DNA of 64,000 nucleotides from an uncultured Chloroflexia bacterium (GTDB lineage Bacteria; Chloroflexota; Anaerolineae; CG2-30-64-16): contig CAWIPK010000007.1 of the NCBI GenBank assembly GCA_963837925.1, forward strand, positions 81,124 to 145,123. The letters are read 5' to 3'. Numbering within the stretch: position 1 is the first letter of the stretch; each line of letters starts with the position of its first letter. Positions 8,854 through 59,579 of this stretch are shown in pieces. The notes under the pieces were generated by a model. It searched no databases, had not been told where the DNA came from, and worked only from the letters and a program-made list of their open reading frames with translations. The position numbers were made by a program, and so were the translations under genes.

Positions 8854-10056
8854 TCAGGGGTCCTCGGGCCTGCGCCGGTCCACCCAGGGCTTTTCCGGTG
8901 GCTCGAGCAGCGAGGCGCGCTGTATCGCGTCCTCGCCGAAGCGAGCACGGATGCGGTCCAGCGCTTCGTCGAGCTGGGCGCGGCGCCGGTCCTCCTGCTC
9001 GAAGAGGCGCAGTTGGCGGGCGGGCTGGCACAGCCGGGCCGTGCCCACTCCGATCAGGCGCAGCGGCCTGCGCCTGTCCCAGGCCGCTGCGAACAGGGCC
9101 AGCGCCTGGGCGTAGACGGCCGGCCCCGTGTCCACCGGCTCGGGCAAAGACGCCTGCCGTGTCAGGGTCGTAAAGTCGCCATAGCGAAGCTTTATGTCGA
9201 CCGTGCGCGCCTGGACCTGGTGGCGCCGCAAGCTGTGGGCAACCTCCTCGCTCAGTCGCAGCAGCTCGCGTCGCAGAACGGCGATATCGTGGACGTCCCG
9301 GGCGAAGGTCTCCTCGCGGCTGATCGACTTCCGTTCGCGCTCCTCTTCCACCGGGCTGTCGTCCAGCCCATGCGCCGCCCGCCAGAGCCCCTCGCCATGG
9401 CTGCCGAAGCGTCCGCGCAATTCGGCGAGCGGCCAGGCCGCCAACTGGCCGATCGTGAGGATACCCAGGCGGTTGAGCTCGGTCGCCGTGACCCGCCCCA
9501 CTCCCCAGAGGCGCCGGATAGGCAGCGGGGCCAAAAAGGCCGCTTCCTGGCCCGGCGGGATCACCGTGACCCCGTGCGGCTTGCCGAAGTCGCTGGCGAT
9601 CTTGGCCATCAGCTTGTTGCCGGCCACGCCCAGCGAGGCCGACAGCCGCAGCTCGGCGTCGATCCGCCGCTGCAGTGCTTGCGCGAGCGCGGCCGGGTCA
9701 CCGAACAAGGCCTGCGTCCCGGTCAGGTCCAGGAAGGCTTCGTCGATCGAGATCTGTTCCATGGCAGGCGCGTACGGCCGGAGGAGCGCCATGACGGCGC
9801 GCGACAACTCGGCATAGCGTTCGTGATGGCCGGGGACGAGGATCGCCTGAGGGCAGAGGCGCAGCGCGACGGCGGTCGGCATGGCGGACTGAACGCCGAA
9901 CGGGCGGCACTCGTAGGAGGCCGAAGCGACCACCCCACGTGCCTCCGGGCGCCCGCCGACGATGACGGGCTTGCCGACCAGGGCCGGGTTGTCCAGGCGC
10001 TCGACGGCCACAAAAAAGGCATCCAGATCGAGGTGAAGGATCGTGCGCTGTGCCAT
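8854..10056 (-). CDS. dinB: DNA polymerase IV (Y-family)
   Basis: N-terminus MAQRTILHLDLDAFFVAVE, then SIDEAFLDLTG and the family fold throughout. The ATG at 10056 is preferred to the GTG at 10083 listed in the ORF track. Confidence 0.9.
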   Translation of the reverse strand: MAQRTILHLDLDAFFVAVERLDNPALVGKPVIVGGRPEARGVVASASYECRPFGVQSAMPTAVALRLCPQAILVPGHHERYAELSRAVMALLRPYAPAMEQISIDEAFLDLTGTQALFGDPAALAQALQRRIDAELRLSASLGVAGNKLMAKIASDFGKPHGVTVIPPGQEAAFLAPLPIRRLWGVGRVTATELNRLGILTIGQLAAWPLAELRGRFGSHGEGLWRAAHGLDDSPVEEERERKSISREETFARDVHDIAVLRRELLRLSEEVAHSLRRHQVQARTVDIKLRYGDFTTLTRQASLPEPVDTGPAVYAQALALFAAAWDRRRPLRLIGVGTARLCQPARQLRLFEQEDRRRAQLDEALDRIRARFGEDAIQRASLLEPPEKPWVDRRRPEDP

Positions 10057-10076
10057 ACGAGCAGTATAATCCCCAT

Positions 10077-10105
10077 TTGACACTTTCTCAACCCCGTGCT
10101 ATACA
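10077..10105 (+). promoter_or_regulatory. Sigma70-type promoter for the his leader/operon (TTGACA, 17-nt spacer, TATACA)
   Basis: -35 TTGACA at 10077-10082, a 17-nt spacer, and -10 TATACA at 10100-10105. It sits in the dinB/hisZ divergent intergenic region. Confidence 0.5.
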
Positions 10106-10115
10106 TACTCACGTT

Positions 10116-10175
10116 ATGTTTCGATTATTGCTCGGCAAGCATCACCATCGCAGCGCGGGCAGGCGCACGGGATAA
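10116..10175 (+). CDS. Candidate his leader peptide MFRLLLGKHHHRSAGRRTG (19 codons, three consecutive His codons)
   Basis: ATG at 10116, CAT CAC CAT at 10140-10148, TAA at 10173-10175. It lies between the predicted promoter and the terminator directly upstream of hisZ. There is no SD, and the predicted TSS is only a few nt upstream. Confidence 0.5.
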   Translation: MFRLLLGKHHHRSAGRRTG

Positions 10176-10214
10176 GCGGTTCAACCGTTGGCGTCCCAAT
10201 TGTGCTTACCCGGC

Positions 10215-10247
10215 AGGACTAGTTGGCTCAACTAGTCCTTTTTTGTT
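10215..10247 (+). terminator. Rho-independent terminator / attenuator immediately upstream of hisZ
   Basis: AGGACTAGTTG-gct-CAACTAGTCCT perfect stem followed by TTTTTTGTT. It is strand-specific for plus, and there is no upstream plus-strand gene for it to terminate. Confidence 0.8.
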
Positions 10248-10271
10248 AATCATGAGCTGGAACGGAGCCTT

Positions 10272-48578: not shown

Positions 48579-49229
48579 TCAGGTATTCTCCTCCAATAGG
48601 CCGTGTTCCATGGCGTAGTGCACCAACTCGACGCGACTATTGAGTGACAGCTTGCCCATTATGTTGGAACGGTGGCTCTCGACCGTCCGAACGCTAAGGC
48701 AGAGAGATTCGGCAATCTGGCGATTGGTGTTGCCCTGGGCGATCAGACGCAGGACCTCGATCTCACGACGGGTGAGAGCCTTGAGCGAGCCGGCGGTCTG
48801 CGATTCGGCCCCGGCTACGTCCTGAAGCAGCGCACGGGTCATGGCCGGGTGCACGTAAAGATCGCCGTCGGCCACCGAGTGAATGGCGTTGATAAGCTCT
48901 GACTCGACGGCCCGCTTGATGATATAGCCTGCGGCGCCTACCCGGACCGCTTCCTGCAGCAGGCTGTAGTCCTCATGCACGGTCAGAATGAGTACGGCAA
49001 TCTCCGCGTGGCTCTCCTTCAGTTGCTGGGTGACCTCGATACCCGTCAGGCCCGGCATGTTTACGTCCAGCAGCAGCACATCCGGGCGCAAGGTCACCGC
49101 CTGGCGCAACGCCTCGTCGCCGTCCGCAGCCTCCCCGATCACTTCCATGTCGGGTTCGGCATTCAGCAATGAACGCAACCCTGCCCGCAAGACACCGTGA
49201 TCGTCGGCAATGAGAATCCTAATGGGCAT
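48579..49229 (-). CDS. NarL/FixJ-family response regulator (canonical receiver + LuxR HTH)
   Basis: ILIADDHG, DVLLLDVNMPG, LILTVHED, GYIIKRA, and the HTH LTRREIEVLRLIAQGNTNRQIAESLCLSVRTVESHRSNIMGKL. ATG at 49229 follows GGAGG. Confidence 0.9.
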   Translation of the reverse strand: MPIRILIADDHGVLRAGLRSLLNAEPDMEVIGEAADGDEALRQAVTLRPDVLLLDVNMPGLTGIEVTQQLKESHAEIAVLILTVHEDYSLLQEAVRVGAAGYIIKRAVESELINAIHSVADGDLYVHPAMTRALLQDVAGAESQTAGSLKALTRREIEVLRLIAQGNTNRQIAESLCLSVRTVESHRSNIMGKLSLNSRVELVHYAMEHGLLEENT

Positions 49230-49385
49230 CTGGTACCTCCACGGACACCGTCGGGCCTTCATCCAATCGCGAGAACTTCAACCGGCGCCTCTCCGGTGAG
49301 CCAATCTCAAACCCAGTGCAGACAAAGGCCAACCTGCTGCGGATCGTACGAATTATACCACGCATTTAAGGAAAAGCGTTCTTGC

Positions 49386-49414
49386 TTGACAGGTGTCCCC
49401 TTCCCCCCTACAAT
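49386..49414 (+). promoter_or_regulatory. Sigma70-type promoter of lhr (TTGACA, 17-nt spacer, TACAAT)
   Basis: -35 at 49386-49391 and -10 at 49409-49414, with the ATG at 49431. Confidence 0.55.
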
Positions 49415-49430
49415 TTCCTCGAGGAACCCT

Positions 49431-52400
49431 ATGTTCAATCCACTCGACAGTTTTTCGCTGCCTGTACGCACCTGGTTTGAGGAGACGTTCCAGGCGCCGA
49501 CTCCGCCGCAGGCCGAGGGTTGGCCGCCGATCCAGCGTGGCGACCACAGCCTCATCCTGGCCCCGACCGGTTCGGGGAAGACGATCGCCGCCTTTCTGTG
49601 GGGGATCGACCAGATCTACCGCGAGCTGGCGTCCGCCGAGGGTGAGGCAGAAGGTCTGGCAGATCGGCAGGTGGCACGTGAGAAAAGCCGGCCGAGCAGC
49701 GCCGCGGCCAACCGCCCCGGCATCCGAGTGCTCTACGTCTCACCGCTCAAGGCGCTCAATAACGACATCGAGCGCAACCTGCGCGCGCCGTTGGCAGGCA
49801 TCCGGGCGGTCGCGCAGCGCTTGGGCCGGCCTCTACCGCCGCTGCACGTGGCTGTGCGCACGGGCGATACGCCCGGACATGTGCGCCAGCAAATGCTCAA
49901 GCAGCCGCCGCATATCCTGATCACCACTCCCGAATCGCTCTACCTGATGTTGACCAGCCCGCGCGCCCGCGAGATGTTCCGCACCGTTCACACCGTGATC
50001 GTGGACGAAATCCACACCCTGTGCGGGAACAAGCGGGGGGTCCACCTTTCGCTGACTCTCGAGCGTCTCGAACACGAGACTGGCCGGCGCGTGCAGCGGA
50101 TCGGCCTGTCCGCCACGCAAAAGCCCCTGGAAGAAGTCGCACGCTTCTTGGGCGGGCAGGAGTGGGCAGATGACCGGCGTGCGTTGCAGCCGCGTCCCGT
50201 ATCCATCGTCAACACCGGATACCAGAAGGCGCTGGATCTCCAGGTCGTCACGGTGGTCAAGGACTTCCGGGAGATGCCCGGCGACACCATTTGGCCCTCC
50301 GTCGTGGCGCGAGTGCTGAGCGACATCCGCCGGCGGCGCAGCACCCTGGTCTTTGCCAATAACCGGCGCCTGGCCGAAAGGACGGCAGACCGCCTGAACG
50401 CGCAGATCGCGGCGGAGGAGAGCGAAGAGATCCCACCCGGCAGCACCGAGGCGCTGGCTCCCGGCGGGATCGTGCGCGACCGGGGCATGTTTGCCCTGGG
50501 AGCCAAGGGGCCGATCCGGGCGCACCACGGCAGCATGTCGAAAGAAGCGCGCCGGGCGATGGAAGAGGACCTCAAGGCCGGGCGCCTGCCGGCATTGGTC
50601 GGCACGAGTTCGCTCGAGTTAGGGATCGACATCGGCGCGGTCGATCAAGTGGTTCAACTGGGATCACCCAACAGTATTGCTCAGGGTCTGCAGCGCGTCG
50701 GCCGGTCGGGCCACCTGGTGGGCCAGACCAGCGTCGGACGCATCTACGCCACCACCCGCGAGGACCTGGTCGAGGCCGCCGCCGTGGCCCGCGGCATGCT
50801 CGAAGGCGACGTCGAGCCGACCTACACCCCGCAGAACCCTTTGGACGTGCTCGCCCAACAGATCGTGGCGATGGTATCGGTGGAGGAATGGCCGGCGGCG
50901 GCGCTCTTCGACCTGCTGCGCCAAGCCTACGCGTACCATGATCTGTCTCCAGATGCCTACCGGGCAGTGCTCGAGATGCTCAGTGGCAAATACCATCGCG
51001 CCAATGGGCGGGAGGGCGAAGGGGGGGCCGACCTCCTGCCCGGCGCGCTGCGGCCGCGCCTGGCCTGGGACCGGGTCAACGATCGGCTGGCAGCGCTGCC
51101 CGGCTCGCGCTTGCTGGCCATCAGCAACGGCGGCACGATCCCGGATACCGGCCCCTACCGGGTCTATCTGGGCGACGGAAAGACGCGTATCGGCGAGCTG
51201 GACGAGGAATTCGTCTTCGAGACGCGCGTGGGCGACGTGTTCTTGTTAGGCAGCAACACCTGGCGCGTGCTCGACATCCAGGACGACCGGGTGATCGTCG
51301 GCGATGCGAGCGGAGCGGTGCCGCGCATGCCCTTCTGGAACGGAGACTATCCGGGACGTCCCTACGAGTTGGGCCAGCGGATCGGCCGCTTCCGTGGGGA
51401 AGTGTCGGCACGCGTCGGACGAACCGATGCCAAGCTCGACGAGCTGATGCGCTGGCTGCAGCACGACTACGCGCTGGACGAAAACTCAGCCACCAACCTT
51501 CTCGAGCATGTCCGCCGCCAGCTCGATGCGCTGGGCGTTATGTCATCCGATAGCACCATCGTCGCCGAGCTTTTCCACGATGCCCTGGGCGAGCCGCGGC
51601 TGGTGGTACACTCGCCCTTCGGCGGGCGCGTGAACGGCGCCTGGGCGATCGTACTGCGCAGCGCCCTTCAGGAGCGAACGGGCGTCGAGGTTGAGATGCA
51701 GGCCGCCGACGACGGCATGATCTTCCGCTTTCCGAGCCTGGAAGGCCTGCCGCCCGTTGACATCCTCCAGTCGATGACGCCCGCCGAGGCGCGCGAGCGC
51801 CTGCTGCGTGACCTGCCAAACTCGGCGGCGTTCGGAGCACAGTTCCGCATGAACGCCGGACGCGCACTGATGCTGCCGCGCGCACACGGCCATCGCCGCA
51901 CACCCTTCTGGCTGCAGCGCCTGAAGGCAAAAGACCTGCTTGCCGTCGTGCGCAAGTTCAAGGACTTCCCGATTATTGCCGAGACCTATCGTGATTGCCT
52001 GAGGGATGTGTTCGATCTGCCCCACCTCGAGACCGTGCTGGAAGCCATCCAGCAGGGCAGTATCCGGATCAGCGTGATCGAGACCGCCGTGCCATCGCCG
52101 GTCGCCGCCGATCTTTTGTTCGGCTTCATGGAGCAGTACTTGTACGAGTGGGACGCGCCCAAAGCCGAGCGTCAACTGCAAACTCTCTCCGTCCGCCGAG
52201 ACCTGCTGGAGGACCTGTTGGGCAGCGGGGTCGAGCTCAACGAACTGCTGCGGTCGGAGGCGGTGAGCGAAGTAGTAGCCCAGGCCCGTCACACGGCGGA
52301 GGGCTACCAGGCCCGCAGCGTCGAGGAGTTGGCCGTGTTCATGGATGAACTCGGCGACCTGACCGAGAGCGAGATCGCGGCGATCTGCGTCCGGCCTCCA

Positions 52401-54272
52401 GCAGGCGGGACGGCCCAGGCAGATGGGAGCCGGAACGCCCAGGCCGCGGGCTGGCTGCGCCAACTGGCGGATAGGGGACGGTTGCTCAAGCTGGCGGTGG
52501 TCAGTGCGGGCGGGCTTGAGGAACGCTGGCTGGCGACTGAACTAGCCGGCGACTACCTACCCGCAGGGATGGAAATGAGCGCGACGGCTGCCTCCGCGGC
52601 GGATGCCCCGCCCTGCCCAAACCCGGAAGCCATCGTGCGCCGCTATCTGCGCACCAGCGGCCCGGTCACCACGCAAGCGATCGTGGCGCGCTACGCCTTC
52701 CCCAGGGACTGGCTCGACGAGGTGCTTGGCCGGTTGGTAAACGATCGAGCCGTCCTCATGGGCCACTTCACCCCCGGTGGCCCAGCGGGCGCCTGCCCAC
52801 CGCCCTGCGAAGAATACTGCGACCCGGGCCTGCTCGAAAAGATCCACCGTCGCAGCCTGGGCCTGCTGCGCAAGGAGGTCCAGCCCGTTTCTCTGGGCCG
52901 CTACGCTGATTTCCTGGCGCGCTGGCAGCACCTGGGCGAGAACGAAGGGCTGCGCGGCCGCGATGGCCTGCGCACCGTGATGCGGCAACTACAAGGCGTG
53001 GCGGTGCCCGGAACGACTTGGGAAGAGGACGTCCTTCCCGCACGGCTGGTCGACTATGATCCGGCGGCGCTGGACGATCTGTGCCAGAAGGGCGAGCTCG
53101 TGTGGGCCGGCCTGGGTCGCGACCCCCGCCGGGCGCGCTTCCGCTTCCTGCCGCGCGGCGAGGGCGGACTCTTCCTGGGCGAACCGGACGAGGACGGGCT
53201 CAGCGAGAGCGCCCGGCTGGTCTACGCGCAGCTCAAGAGCGAAGGGGCCTCATTCAGCGCCGACCTGGCAGCCGGCACGGGCCTCCGGCCGGCCGCGTTG
53301 GAAGCGGCGCTGGTCGAACTGGTCATGTGCGGGCTGGCAACCAACGATACATTGGGGGTGATGCACTACCTGGCCGAGTCGGGGCGACGACCGGGCGCCG
53401 CGGCCACTGGGACCTTGGCGCCGGATGGCAGCGCGGAGGCAGCGCGACCTGTGCTCAGCTCCCTGGAAGCGGAGTTGGCAGTTCGCCTGCCCCGTTCACG
53501 CCCGCCGTCCCCGGGCCGTCATCGCGGCGCGGCCTGGCGCGGCGCCAAGCGACGCGTCGCCCAGCAGTTGCGCGCCAGCAGCCCTGCCCCCGATCTCGCC
53601 GCAGGCCGCTGGTCATTGATCCATCGGACGGGGGTGTTGGGTCGCCCGCTGCCGGCCGAGGAAAGAGCTGACAGGCTGGCGCGCGTCCTGCTCGAACGCC
53701 ACGGCGTGCTGACACGTGATGCGGTCGAACGCGAGGAACTCGGGGCGGACTGGCCCCTGCTCTACGCACACCTGCAACGGATGGAGATGCGGGGTGACGT
53801 GCGGCGCGGCTACTTCGTGGCCGGGCTGCCTGGTGCCCAGTTCGCCCTGCCCGAGGCGGTGGAAAAGCTCCGCGCCGCCGGAGAGGCAGGCAGCGAGGAC
53901 GCGGGGCCGGTCGTGCTGAACGCGACAGATCCGGCGAACCTGTACGGCTCGCTTGGACCCGCCGCAGCGCAGGGCCAGGCCGGCCCCCACTTCCCCCGCC
54001 TGCCATCCACCCACGTGGTCCTGTCGAACGGCAAGCCGGTTCTGATCGCCGAGGACGGCGGCCAGCGGCTGACGGCCGCGGAGGAAGACGGACCTGAGCT
54101 GCTGAAGCAGGCCGTGGGCGCCTACCTCGATCGGCCGCACGCGCCACGCCACCTGATCGTCAGCCAATGGAATGGCGCGCCCGTGCTCGGCGGTCCGGGA
54201 GAGGCGCTGCTGCAAGAGCTCGGCTTCTATCGCTCGCCGGCCGGCATGGAGTGGTGGGCGCCTCATCTGTAA
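49431..54272 (+). CDS. lhr: Lhr-type large ATP-dependent (DEAH-box) helicase
   Basis: Walker A APTGSGKT, DEIH box, SATQ, HHGSMS and VQLGSP..QRVGRSGH, plus a long Lhr-like C-terminal region. About 1613 aa from the ATG at 49431. Confidence 0.92.
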   Translation: MFNPLDSFSLPVRTWFEETFQAPTPPQAEGWPPIQRGDHSLILAPTGSGKTIAAFLWGIDQIYRELASAEGEAEGLADRQVAREKSRPSSAAANRPGIRVLYVSPLKALNNDIERNLRAPLAGIRAVAQRLGRPLPPLHVAVRTGDTPGHVRQQMLKQPPHILITTPESLYLMLTSPRAREMFRTVHTVIVDEIHTLCGNKRGVHLSLTLERLEHETGRRVQRIGLSATQKPLEEVARFLGGQEWADDRRALQPRPVSIVNTGYQKALDLQVVTVVKDFREMPGDTIWPSVVARVLSDIRRRRSTLVFANNRRLAERTADRLNAQIAAEESEEIPPGSTEALAPGGIVRDRGMFALGAKGPIRAHHGSMSKEARRAMEEDLKAGRLPALVGTSSLELGIDIGAVDQVVQLGSPNSIAQGLQRVGRSGHLVGQTSVGRIYATTREDLVEAAAVARGMLEGDVEPTYTPQNPLDVLAQQIVAMVSVEEWPAAALFDLLRQAYAYHDLSPDAYRAVLEMLSGKYHRANGREGEGGADLLPGALRPRLAWDRVNDRLAALPGSRLLAISNGGTIPDTGPYRVYLGDGKTRIGELDEEFVFETRVGDVFLLGSNTWRVLDIQDDRVIVGDASGAVPRMPFWNGDYPGRPYELGQRIGRFRGEVSARVGRTDAKLDELMRWLQHDYALDENSATNLLEHVRRQLDALGVMSSDSTIVAELFHDALGEPRLVVHSPFGGRVNGAWAIVLRSALQERTGVEVEMQAADDGMIFRFPSLEGLPPVDILQSMTPAEARERLLRDLPNSAAFGAQFRMNAGRALMLPRAHGHRRTPFWLQRLKAKDLLAVVRKFKDFPIIAETYRDCLRDVFDLPHLETVLEAIQQGSIRISVIETAVPSPVAADLLFGFMEQYLYEWDAPKAERQLQTLSVRRDLLEDLLGSGVELNELLRSEAVSEVVAQARHTAEGYQARSVEELAVFMDELGDLTESEIAAICVRPPAGGTAQADGSRNAQAAGWLRQLADRGRLLKLAVVSAGGLEERWLATELAGDYLPAGMEMSATAASAADAPPCPNPEAIVRRYLRTSGPVTTQAIVARYAFPRDWLDEVLGRLVNDRAVLMGHFTPGGPAGACPPPCEEYCDPGLLEKIHRRSLGLLRKEVQPVSLGRYADFLARWQHLGENEGLRGRDGLRTVMRQLQGVAVPGTTWEEDVLPARLVDYDPAALDDLCQKGELVWAGLGRDPRRARFRFLPRGEGGLFLGEPDEDGLSESARLVYAQLKSEGASFSADLAAGTGLRPAALEAALVELVMCGLATNDTLGVMHYLAESGRRPGAAATGTLAPDGSAEAARPVLSSLEAELAVRLPRSRPPSPGRHRGAAWRGAKRRVAQQLRASSPAPDLAAGRWSLIHRTGVLGRPLPAEERADRLARVLLERHGVLTRDAVEREELGADWPLLYAHLQRMEMRGDVRRGYFVAGLPGAQFALPEAVEKLRAAGEAGSEDAGPVVLNATDPANLYGSLGPAAAQGQAGPHFPRLPSTHVVLSNGKPVLIAEDGGQRLTAAEEDGPELLKQAVGAYLDRPHAPRHLIVSQWNGAPVLGGPGEALLQELGFYRSPAGMEWWAPHL

Positions 54273-57055: not shown

Positions 57056-58378
57056 CTAACCTCTGGCTACCTGGCGCACTTCTTGGCCGTTGCAGTAGCC
57101 AGTCGAGGCAGCGTCGCCGCCGTCGATCTTGTGGAGCAGGAGGGCCTTGCCCTCGCGCGTGACGAGCAGTTGCAGGGGCACATTGTGGATCGGGCACAGC
57201 ACGGGTCCCTCGCCCTCGTCAATTTCGGCTGACGTCGCCAGGGCGCCGCTTGCCGGCGCGAGCTGGGCACCATCCTCGGCTGCCGCGACCGCCAGGTGCG
57301 CGGCTTTGCCGGCCGCTGCTCCCTCGGCCGCTCGCCTGCGGGACGGACTTCGGGGAGCTTCGCGGCGTGTCTCGCCCGTCGTCGAGACGCTCGCCTGCTT
57401 TGGGCCGCTCGCCTCGCCCGCGGGCTGCCCATCGCGGGGGGCGGGGGATGCCGGTTCGGGGCCCGACCGTTCGTCGGGCTGCGGCGCCGCTCGTTCGGCG
57501 GCCGCCGGCCGGCTGTCCCGCGCGCCGGCGTCTGGCTGTGCTTCCGCGGGCGGCCGTCCGGCGCCCTCAGACGCCTGCCGCGACTGAACCGCCTCGCCGG
57601 CGCGCCCCGCCGAATGCGCCGCGCCGTCCTCGTCGCGGTGACTGCCCGGCGCGGCCGCGCTGGGCGCCTGGCCCGCCGCCGGACCTGGGGTCGCTCCTGA
57701 ATGGCTGGGCGACCGTCGCAGGTCGCCCGACCCACCGGCTAGGGCCGGCCGTGCGCCGCCCGCGGCCGGCGGCCGGCTGTGGCCGTTCGTACCCGCGCGG
57801 GCAAACAGGGCCTGACCGTTAGCCTCCGGCCGGACCGGGGGGGCCGCACCGGCGGTCCGGCCCTCGACCGCTGCGGTCACGCCAAGGCGGCGCAGCAAGT
57901 TTTCCAGCTTCTTGAGCTCCACCTCAGGGATGCCTCGATCGGCGTCAAAGTCCACCCAGGGCTTAGGCAGGTCGTACAGGTAGCGTCCCAGCCCGAAGGC
58001 CGCACACGCTCGCTTGAAAGCCTGCGCCTTGGCGCTCGTCAGAGCATTGTCGTCAGTCAGCTCGCACTCCCCGACATCGCTGCGTGTGCGCTCGGCAATC
58101 GTCAGGCGGCACTTGACGAAGACCTTCCCCGAAATGACGCGCTTCTCACCGCCCCGCCCCAGCGCCTCCTGGGGGTCCGAGAACCAGATCGCGTAATCAT
58201 CCTGCCACTCGGGGCAAACCTGATCCAGGCGCTCCTGGTACGGTTGCGTATCGACGTAGGGCACGGCCAGGCAGCGCTTGCGCTCCCGACTGATCGTCTG
58301 CGGTTTCCAGGCAACAACCTCGACCGAAAATGGGACCCTCAACCCATCCAGAACTTGTTCCCAGTTCGTGGTGTCCAT
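57056..58378 (-). CDS. Rad52/Rad22-family single-strand annealing protein (DdrA-like) with a long low-complexity tail and a small Cys/His C-terminal module
   Basis: The N-terminal ~190 aa contain VAWKPQT..CLAVPYVD..YQERLDQVCP and SAKAQAFKRACAAFGLGRYLYDLPKPWVDFD, the signature I associate with Rad52/DdrA. About 190 aa of Pro/Ala/Gly/Arg-rich sequence follow, then CPIH..HK..CNG. ATG at 58378 follows AAGGAG. Confidence 0.65.
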   Translation of the reverse strand: MDTTNWEQVLDGLRVPFSVEVVAWKPQTISRERKRCLAVPYVDTQPYQERLDQVCPEWQDDYAIWFSDPQEALGRGGEKRVISGKVFVKCRLTIAERTRSDVGECELTDDNALTSAKAQAFKRACAAFGLGRYLYDLPKPWVDFDADRGIPEVELKKLENLLRRLGVTAAVEGRTAGAAPPVRPEANGQALFARAGTNGHSRPPAAGGARPALAGGSGDLRRSPSHSGATPGPAAGQAPSAAAPGSHRDEDGAAHSAGRAGEAVQSRQASEGAGRPPAEAQPDAGARDSRPAAAERAAPQPDERSGPEPASPAPRDGQPAGEASGPKQASVSTTGETRREAPRSPSRRRAAEGAAAGKAAHLAVAAAEDGAQLAPASGALATSAEIDEGEGPVLCPIHNVPLQLLVTREGKALLLHKIDGGDAASTGYCNGQEVRQVARG

Positions 58379-58416
58379 GTGTCTTAATCTCCTTTCGCGG
58401 CTCGGTCCCGGGCTGG

Positions 58417-58430
58417 CGAACATACGTTCT
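58417..58430. promoter_or_regulatory. Candidate LexA (SOS/Cheo-type) box CGAACATACGTTCT
   Basis: It matches 13 of 14 positions of CGAACRNRYGTTYC (GAAC-N4-GTTC palindrome). It directly abuts the -10 element of the Rad52-like gene. Confidence 0.55.
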
Positions 58431-58439
58431 ATTATAGCA
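58431..58439 (-). promoter_or_regulatory. Extended -10 element TGcTATAAT of the Rad52-like gene
   Basis: The reverse complement of 58431-58439 reads TGCTATAAT, about 55 nt upstream of the ATG. Confidence 0.5.
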
Positions 58440-58571
58440 CACCTGTCAAGCCAGCACAAACTATCAAAGAGGCAATTCAAGGCCTGGGCACCGTTCCCTG
58501 CTGCCCGCATCCTGTGCGCTTTTTGCTGTCACGACTACTGAAGCCGAGCCGTGAATGGGGATACTAGGAGC

Positions 58572-59579
58572 ATGGCCGACAAAATAGCAGGCATCCATCA
58601 CGTGACGGCGATCGCCGGCGACCCGCAGCGCAACGTCGACTTCTACACGGGAGTGATCGGGCTGCGCCTGGTGAAAGTAACCGTCAACTTCGACGACCCG
58701 GGTACCTACCACCTCTACTATGGAGACGGCGAGGGACGTCCGGGCACGGTCTTGACCTTCTTTCCCTGGCCGGAGGGCGCGCAGGGCCGCAATGGCCCGG
58801 GACAGGCGACGATCGTCTCGTTTGCCGTGCCCCTGGCCGGGCTGCAGTTCTGGGCCGAGAGGCTGGAAGACTTCGATATCAGTTACGAAGGACCGATCGC
58901 CCGCTTTGGTGACCGTGTCCTCACTTTTGTTGACCATGACGGGCTGCAGATCGAGTTGGTCGGCCGGCGCAGATTGGTCGGCGACGGCGAGCGTTTTGGC
59001 GCCGTGCCGCCTCAATACGCGGTGCAGGGCATCTGTGGGATTACGCTGCTGCAAGAGGAATTGGCGCCGACCGACCGGATGCTGACCGGGCCGCTGGGCT
59101 TTCGTGCGGCCGATCAGGTGGGCAACCGCTACCGCTACACGAGCAGCCACGACGACCCGGGAAGCTTCGTCGACATATTGGTGGTGCCGGGCATGCTGCC
59201 GGGCCGGGTCGCGGTGGGCACCGTGCATCACGTGGCCTGGCGCACTCCGACCGATGGCACCCAGCAGGGTTGGCGTGAAGAGTTGCTGCGACGGCAAGAG
59301 CGCGTCACCCCGGTGCAGGACCGCCAATACTTCCGCTCGATCTATTTCCGTGAACCAGGCGGGGTGCTGTTCGAGATCGCCACCGACGGGCCCGGCTTCA
59401 CCGTGGATGAGGCGGCCGATAAGCTCGGCTCCGGCCTTAGGCTGCCGGCCTGGCTGGAACCGCGGCGCGCAGCCATCCAGGGCGCCCTACCCGCCCTGCG
59501 CCTGCCCACCCCGACGGCCGCGCTCGTTAGCACCCCCGACTTAGTGCAGATAAGCGCAGGGGCGGCAGGCACGCCATAG
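58572..59579 (+). CDS. Ring-cleaving dioxygenase / glyoxalase (VOC) family protein, two-domain type
   Basis: GIHHVTAIAGDPQRNVDFYTGVIGLRLVK..NFDDPGTYHLYYGD and a second module VHHVAWR. AGGAG RBS before the ATG at 58572. Confidence 0.8.
   Translation: MADKIAGIHHVTAIAGDPQRNVDFYTGVIGLRLVKVTVNFDDPGTYHLYYGDGEGRPGTVLTFFPWPEGAQGRNGPGQATIVSFAVPLAGLQFWAERLEDFDISYEGPIARFGDRVLTFVDHDGLQIELVGRRRLVGDGERFGAVPPQYAVQGICGITLLQEELAPTDRMLTGPLGFRAADQVGNRYRYTSSHDDPGSFVDILVVPGMLPGRVAVGTVHHVAWRTPTDGTQQGWREELLRRQERVTPVQDRQYFRSIYFREPGGVLFEIATDGPGFTVDEAADKLGSGLRLPAWLEPRRAAIQGALPALRLPTPTAALVSTPDLVQISAGAAGTP

Follow-up and report, generated by a model that had tools for sequence, protein, structure and literature searches.

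In an Anaerolineales genome of the Chloroflexota, the predicted start site of a chromosomal gene for a Rad52/Sak-family protein is covered by a palindrome of the type that LexA binds in Gram-positive bacteria. The gene lies in a stretch of 64,000 nucleotides, here called the window. Given the way in which the palindrome persists in related promoters, it is very likely that it serves as a functional operator. The best reading, which we consider probable, is that of a LexA-type operator that blocks the initiation of transcription. LexA is proposed as the binder from motif identity alone, and repression would be its mode of action. With its binder predicted in this way, the Rad52-like gene is probably damage-inducible.

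The palindromic 14-bp operator candidate occupies positions 58417..58430 and reads CGAACATACGTTCT on the plus strand and AGAACGTATGTTCG on the coding (minus) strand. Its GAAC-N4-GTTC core spans 58418-58429, and the 8-nt core is perfect. A preliminary description of this DNA had assigned the site to the Gram-positive (Cheo-box) class of LexA motifs on the strength of a match at 13 of 14 positions. Both the class and the count are borne out by comparison with the consensus CGAACRNRYGTTYC of B. subtilis and the Firmicutes, with which 13/14 positions are identical; the LexA box of Actinobacteria is TCGAAC-N4-GTTCGA (for both groups, PMC2248561, PMC3323433).

The box abuts the promoter of the Rad52-like gene. 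On the plus strand, positions 58431-58439 read ATTATAGCA; on the coding strand they read TGCTATAAT, which is followed by AGAACGTATGTTCG without a gap. This segment forms an extended -10 element, TGcTATAAT (58439->58431, minus strand), with its TATAAT hexamer at 58436->58431. A weak -35 element, TTGTGC (58459->58454, minus strand), is separated from the -10 by a 17-nt spacer. It agrees with TTGACA at 3/6 positions only, which explains why a sigma-70 consensus scan of the window reported no promoter. From promoter geometry alone, transcription is predicted to start at 58423..58425 (minus strand), about 7 nt past the -10. The predicted start would fall within the operator, which would span roughly -6 to +8. 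The order of extended -10 and box, and the overlap of the box with the predicted start, had both been claimed at the outset; the former agrees with the sequence and the latter is supported by the promoter geometry. A ribosome-binding site, AGGAGA (58388..58393, minus strand), lies 9 nt 5' of the ATG at 58378, and 23 nt of leader separate it from AGAACGTATGTTCG. Within this 5'UTR is a heptamer, CGGGAC(C) (58399-58405, minus strand), that recurs in 6/7 box-bearing promoters (window, L001, L082, L085, L087 and L091, introduced below), about 5 to 29 nt from the box.

The gene downstream (57056..58378, minus strand) encodes 440 amino acids, and the start ATG of this reading frame is common to all orthologs (MDTTNWEQ...). 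It had been described as a member of the Rad52 family, an identification that profile and structure searches uphold. The Pfam family Rad52_Rad22 (PF04098) matches residues 11-142 with 35.3 bits against a gathering cut-off of 20.3 (E-value 1.4e-8), and PHROG 1097, an Erf-like annealing protein, matches at 5.5e-22. An AlphaFold model of residues 1-200 (pLDDT 88.9, pTM 0.79) retrieved phage 80alpha Sak (8qe9, 8pq8) as all of the best four PDB matches in Foldseek, with probability 1.00 and TM-scores of 0.33-0.61; model and matches together display the beta-beta-beta-alpha fold of Rad52-like proteins. Searches of PDB chains with the Rad52-like protein, by direct sequence and by profile, gave no match. 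We conclude that the product is a Rad52/Sak-family annealing protein, with its activity predicted from the modelled fold.

The Rad52 domain covers residues 1-165 (about 57884-58378). It is followed by a low-complexity linker of about 200 residues rich in A, P, G and R (57200-57800), whose length and sequence differ greatly among orthologs, so that the total protein ranges from 300 to 440 residues. A C-terminal mini-domain of about 48 residues (approximately 393-440; 57059-57202) carries the Cys/His motif CPIHNVPLQL..TREGK..LLHKI..YCNGQEV, which is conserved in the orthologs P0002 and P0003. The arrangement of its Cys and His residues hints at a small zinc-binding module. In chromosomal homologs at greater distance (P0032, P0012), this motif is replaced by a different tail, one that may be related to the ExoX-like_C domain faintly seen in P0026.

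Counted within the window, the box is within chance expectation and not significant. The perfect GAAC-N4-GTTC core occurs once in 64 kb, compared to a mean of 0.52 in 100 shuffles, 42 of which hold at least one. There are three 14-mers with at most one mismatch where 1.19 are expected. Among 22 hits with at most one mismatch, five are intergenic, and the box is the sole perfect one of these. What exceeds chance is the position of the box and its conservation. In other words, the box is convincing because it is conserved across related promoters, despite a chance-level count in the window.

We compared seven Rad52-like promoters: that of the window, those of four orthologs (67-78% identity) and those of two homologs (50-52%) in other gene neighbourhoods. 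The orthologs are in the MAG JADGQF01 (L001; 78%, divergent VOC gene), a 189-kb ENA contig (L082; 78%, synteny as in the window), JGI and Logan contigs (L085/L086; 67%, divergent VOC gene) and a JGI contig (L087; 76%). The two homologs are on JGI contigs (L089/L090, 52%; L091, 50%). Six of the promoters are chromosomal, and the L087 contig is too short to classify. JADGQF01, an Anaerolineales MAG and the closest named relative, is the only GTDB relative found, at 78% identity; many members of the protein family carry the label Anaerolineae. A database search gave no exact match to the window protein. In L089 (6001-7395, and likewise in L090), an SSB gene lies 118 nt downstream of the boxed Rad52-like gene on the same strand, which suggests a Rad52-SSB operon under one operator.

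Both GAAC/GTTC arms, eight positions in all, are invariant in 7/7 promoters. This was read from a box-anchored alignment, as a MAFFT alignment of five upstream regions misaligned the divergent ones. In every promoter a -10-like hexamer (TATAAT, TATATT, TACAAT or TATTAT) lies 1-8 nt upstream of the box core, and a -35 stands at 17-nt spacing, as TTGCAC, TTGCAT or TTGACA in the orthologs. All seven promoters are thus alike in having the box overlap the predicted core promoter or start. The 4-nt spacer of the box varies freely (GTAT, AGAT, AAAT, ATAA, AAAA, ACAA, AGGC), and the gap between -10 and box and the box flanks also vary. The symmetrised seven-site consensus is AGAACATATGTTCT, and with both orientations counted the motif is [A/C]GAAC-A-T-A-T-GTTC-[T/G]. 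Individual sites agree with CGAACRNRYGTTYC, a consensus derived from Gram-positives and not from Chloroflexota, at 11-13/14 positions. Additional, degenerate half-sites cover the -35 and spacer in L085 and L089, and a second box, which contains one mismatch, is present in L085.

In the four most distant promoters (L085, L087, L089, L091), flanks and leaders are unalignable. What these promoters retain is confined to both arms and the -35 and -10 elements; spacer, flanks and leader differ. We interpret the pattern across the seven promoters to indicate purifying selection on the box as a two-half-site palindrome, as expected of an operator. The operator of a dimeric repressor would leave just such a signature: arms that do not vary, 4 nt between them that do, and a constant placement relative to the -10 and start.

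The box is confined to part of the protein family. A promoter-proximal box was found in 0 of about 127 further homologs, comprising 80 distant metagenome homologs of about 40% identity, 42 viral homologs from IMG/VR and five copies in phage or mobile-element contexts (L083, L088, L093, L094, L096). In the 80 metagenome homologs, hits with at most one mismatch occur at the same density upstream (0.49 per kb) as elsewhere (0.42 per kb). Family-wide conservation of the box, which we had also considered, is rejected on these grounds. Absence from the 40%-identical and viral homologs indicates that the box is specific to chromosomal clades, and absence from the phage and mobile copies that the element goes with cellular, not phage, regulation. 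Thus, judged from these comparisons, the box belongs to copies outside mobile elements (six chromosomal, with L087 unclassifiable) and not to the whole protein family.

Some of the box-less copies have features of their own. Directly 5' of the start codon of mobile-element homologs is a non-coding element, about 280 nt long and rich in both GC and hairpins (L093:4725-5000, L094:4705-5000, L096:5690-6000), with the conserved blocks CCCGCAAGGG..GCAC(T/G)TTAACAAC and CCCTGACGC.GCAGGG.AAAACAC. Its hosts include Bellilinea sp. and an Anaerolineae MAG, and the genes beside it encode ArdC, RadC, SWIM proteins and small ORFs. No Rfam family matched this element, which may act as a leading-region single-strand promoter or represent an undescribed RNA. 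Downstream of the viral homolog in L102, 471-505 nt past the match start, is a perfect 12-nt inverted repeat, GAACGCCGGTTC...GAACCGGCGTTC. It looks like a terminator hairpin and has no relation to the operator.

The surroundings of the Rad52-like gene in the window are ordinary chromosome. The gene order is lhr (49197-54272, plus strand), ABC exporter, HAD hydrolase, Rad52-like gene, VOC/glyoxalase-family gene (58572..59579, plus strand; Pfam PF00903) and a TreS/maltokinase-like gene. The VOC gene is divergent from the Rad52-like gene across a 193-nt intergenic region. About 30-50 nt ahead of the VOC start is a block, TTTGCTGTCACGACTACTGAAG (58521-58542), that is shared by L001 and L082 and in part by L085; it is probably the promoter or leader of the VOC gene itself. 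At a distance, dinB, for a Y-family polymerase (8854-10083, minus strand), is divergent from a hisS-like/hisZ-hisG-hisD-hisC cluster. Its upstream region (10084-10271) holds no GAAC-N4-GTTC-like site even with one mismatch allowed, and no comparable box lies upstream of lhr in the window, as the preliminary description had stated and a scan of the window confirmed. Box-less dinB and lhr genes are compatible with a small or differently composed regulon, but lend the LexA reading no support.

The mechanism that we propose is the classic one. A dimeric repressor, most likely the LexA of the organism, would bind the two GAAC/GTTC half-sites, which adjoin the extended -10 and extend across the predicted start. 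Sitting over the start site, the bound repressor would keep RNA polymerase from initiating. Upon DNA damage, RecA would stimulate LexA to cleave itself and so clear the promoter, and the chromosomal Rad52/Sak-type annealing protein would be made for the repair of broken or gapped DNA. Two observations favour a damage regulon: the Rad52/Sak fold of the product and the pairing with SSB in L089. The LexA of Dehalococcoides ethenogenes (Chloroflexi) reportedly binds a box of the Gram-positive type (J Bacteriol, 2002), and within the same phylum the step from motif to LexA would be a natural one. The preliminary description likewise credited at least one Chloroflexi species with a LexA box of this type.

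Searches for the regulator itself covered several sources. A phmmer search with the LexA proteins of E. coli and B. subtilis and the RecA of E. coli found neither lexA nor recA in the window or the fetched loci. A tblastn search of PLSDB with B. subtilis LexA and with a hand-made consensus gave no Chloroflexota among the best 60 matches listed per search, and a protein homology search with the LexA consensus returned only Firmicutes and Coriobacteriia, with no Chloroflexota. A representative-library search with P0121 yielded 150 representatives; the 25 named after clustering were from Acidimicrobiia, Xenobia, Actinomycetota, Firmicutes and Megasphaera, with no Chloroflexota among them. The Xenobia LexA as query retrieved Xenobia, Armatimonadetes and Firmicutes, again with no Chloroflexota. 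Overall, the LexA searches reached Firmicutes, Coriobacteriia, Actinomycetota, Gemmatimonadota, Eremiobacterota and Armatimonadota. Upstream of the lexA gene of an 8.4-Mb soil contig (L092:2900-3000), GAACTAATGTGC lies between TTGACG (-35) and TATATT (-10). This site differs from the Cheo core by a single mismatch. The contig probably belongs to the Gemmatimonadota, judging from the cluster of one neighbouring gene, and says nothing about Anaerolineae. Among sequencing runs, the organism was found in only two, both of low-coverage soil DNA. A wetland metatranscriptome contains one contig, about 92% alike, that covers 178 nt inside the Rad52-like gene. In the open-access literature that we searched, no Anaerolineae SOS system or LexA regulon was found.

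The conserved box could in principle have no regulatory function, as a chance palindrome or as a short RNA hairpin that a conserved 5'UTR leader carries along passively. Chance alone could supply one perfect core in 64 kb. The stretch between box and ATG is the same in L001 as in the window and almost the same in L082; with the whole leader so nearly identical, conservation in the three closest relatives says little. Counter to this, the four divergent promoters keep only the -35, the -10 and the arms, the 4-bp stem with its 4-nt loop has no significant folding energy, and the roughly 127 mobile-element, viral or distant metagenome homologs do without the box. We regard an absence of function as very improbable, and as largely refuted by the phylogenetic footprint. 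A separate explanation of the palindrome and leader by RNA structure was rejected: fold z-scores ranged from +0.98 to -2.2 with no common structure, and the leader matched nothing in Rfam. Alternatively, the operator might mainly, or also, control the divergent VOC/glyoxalase gene, with the Rad52-like gene as a bystander or co-regulated partner. The two genes share their intergenic region, and the arrangement is kept in L001, L082 and L085. Yet the box lies 141 nt from the VOC start while it abuts the -10 of the Rad52-like gene, L089 and L091, where no VOC gene is close by, have the box at the same place with respect to the Rad52 gene, and the TTTGCTGTCACGACTACTGAAG block is the better candidate for a VOC promoter or leader. 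Control of the VOC gene seems to us improbable as the main role of the box, less so than an absence of function; co-regulation of the VOC gene is possible, and this explanation is compatible with, not exclusive of, a LexA-type operator.

The main rival concedes a real, conserved operator and assigns it to a global repressor other than LexA. The binder could be another dimeric helix-turn-helix protein of the Anaerolineae, whose site is GAAC-N4-GTTC by coincidence. Consistent with this are the lack of lexA and recA in the window and fetched loci and the box-less dinB, a frequent SOS gene. A precedent also exists in Deinococcus, where the RDRM sites of ddrA are assigned to DdrO and LexA is explicitly excluded (PMC1978522). 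Those sites, 17-bp TT.TG....AC..AA palindromes, are unlike the box here. The arms, the spacing and the A/T-rich centre are exactly those of the LexA box of Firmicutes and Actinobacteria, and we know of no other described regulator with a GAAC-N4-GTTC site. We therefore consider a different repressor unlikely, while ranking it above the other alternatives. No regulator gene is conserved beside the Rad52-like gene, and L089 and L091 are in different neighbourhoods; together these points suggest a global regulator acting in trans.

What would a LexA-type operator at this gene mean? SOS regulons have been experimentally defined in few phyla. If the operator is that of LexA, the seven-site motif AGAACATATGTTCT could seed the reconstruction of the SOS regulon of a large, mostly uncultured class, and a cellular Rad52-family annealing protein would join the SOS functions. 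Bacterial proteins of this family are otherwise known mainly from phages and from Deinococcus ddrA. On the same condition, the split between copies with the box (six on chromosomes, one unclassifiable) and phage or mobile copies that lack it would cleanly illustrate how a host captures a phage recombination gene and rewires it into a stress regulon of its own. More tentatively, and with somewhat more doubt than confidence, we suggest that an Anaerolineae lineage domesticated a phage-type Rad52/Sak protein as a standing, LexA-controlled SOS component, a RecA-independent or RecA-assisting annealing branch in which the Cys/His C-terminal module is found in some copies and a partner SSB with others. 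If so, this would constitute a single-strand annealing branch of double-strand-break repair. The finding leaves the understanding of SOS regulation unchanged, as operator type, position and repression logic are textbook. What is new, if the operator is that of LexA, is a regulon member in a class for which the searched literature holds no SOS system.

Looking across known systems, the box most closely resembles the Cheo box. The two share the GAAC-N4-GTTC core, the palindromic layout of two half-sites, the A/T-rich centre and the overlap with the core promoter or predicted start of a DNA-repair gene. They differ in the outer flank, which here is mostly A/T (AGAAC...GTTCT) and not C/G, and in the host, an Anaerolineales bacterium in which LexA binding is predicted from the motif. 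The Dehalococcoides ethenogenes LexA system is of the same phylum and reportedly of the same motif type; it belongs to the class Dehalococcoidia, whereas the gene here is from Anaerolineae.

The protein invites two further comparisons. Its N-terminal domain has phage Sak (80alpha; PDB 8pq8, 8qe9) as best structural match and belongs to the same Pfam and PHROG families. The phage and mobile-element copies sit within early or leading-region operons with no GAAC-N4-GTTC box, in contrast to the window gene, which is stand-alone and chromosomal and has its own operator. The second comparison is with Deinococcus radiodurans DdrA (DR0423), a cellular single-strand annealing or end-protection protein of the Rad52 family, whose gene belongs to the radiation/desiccation response regulon (PMC1978522; PMC515370). 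The ddrA promoter carries 17-bp RDRM sites, a palindromic damage-regulon operator assigned to DdrO and not to LexA (PMC1978522). Both are chromosomal, non-phage Rad52-family genes with a palindromic operator, which in the case of DdrA serves a damage regulon. The protein here differs in its long low-complexity linker and C-terminal Cys/His motif, and its operator is GAAC-N4-GTTC instead of RDRM; inspection by eye of the 193-nt intergenic region revealed no 17-bp RDRM palindrome (TTATGT...ACGTAA type). The annealing branch that we tentatively propose would be analogous to Deinococcus DdrA, but wired to LexA instead of DdrO.
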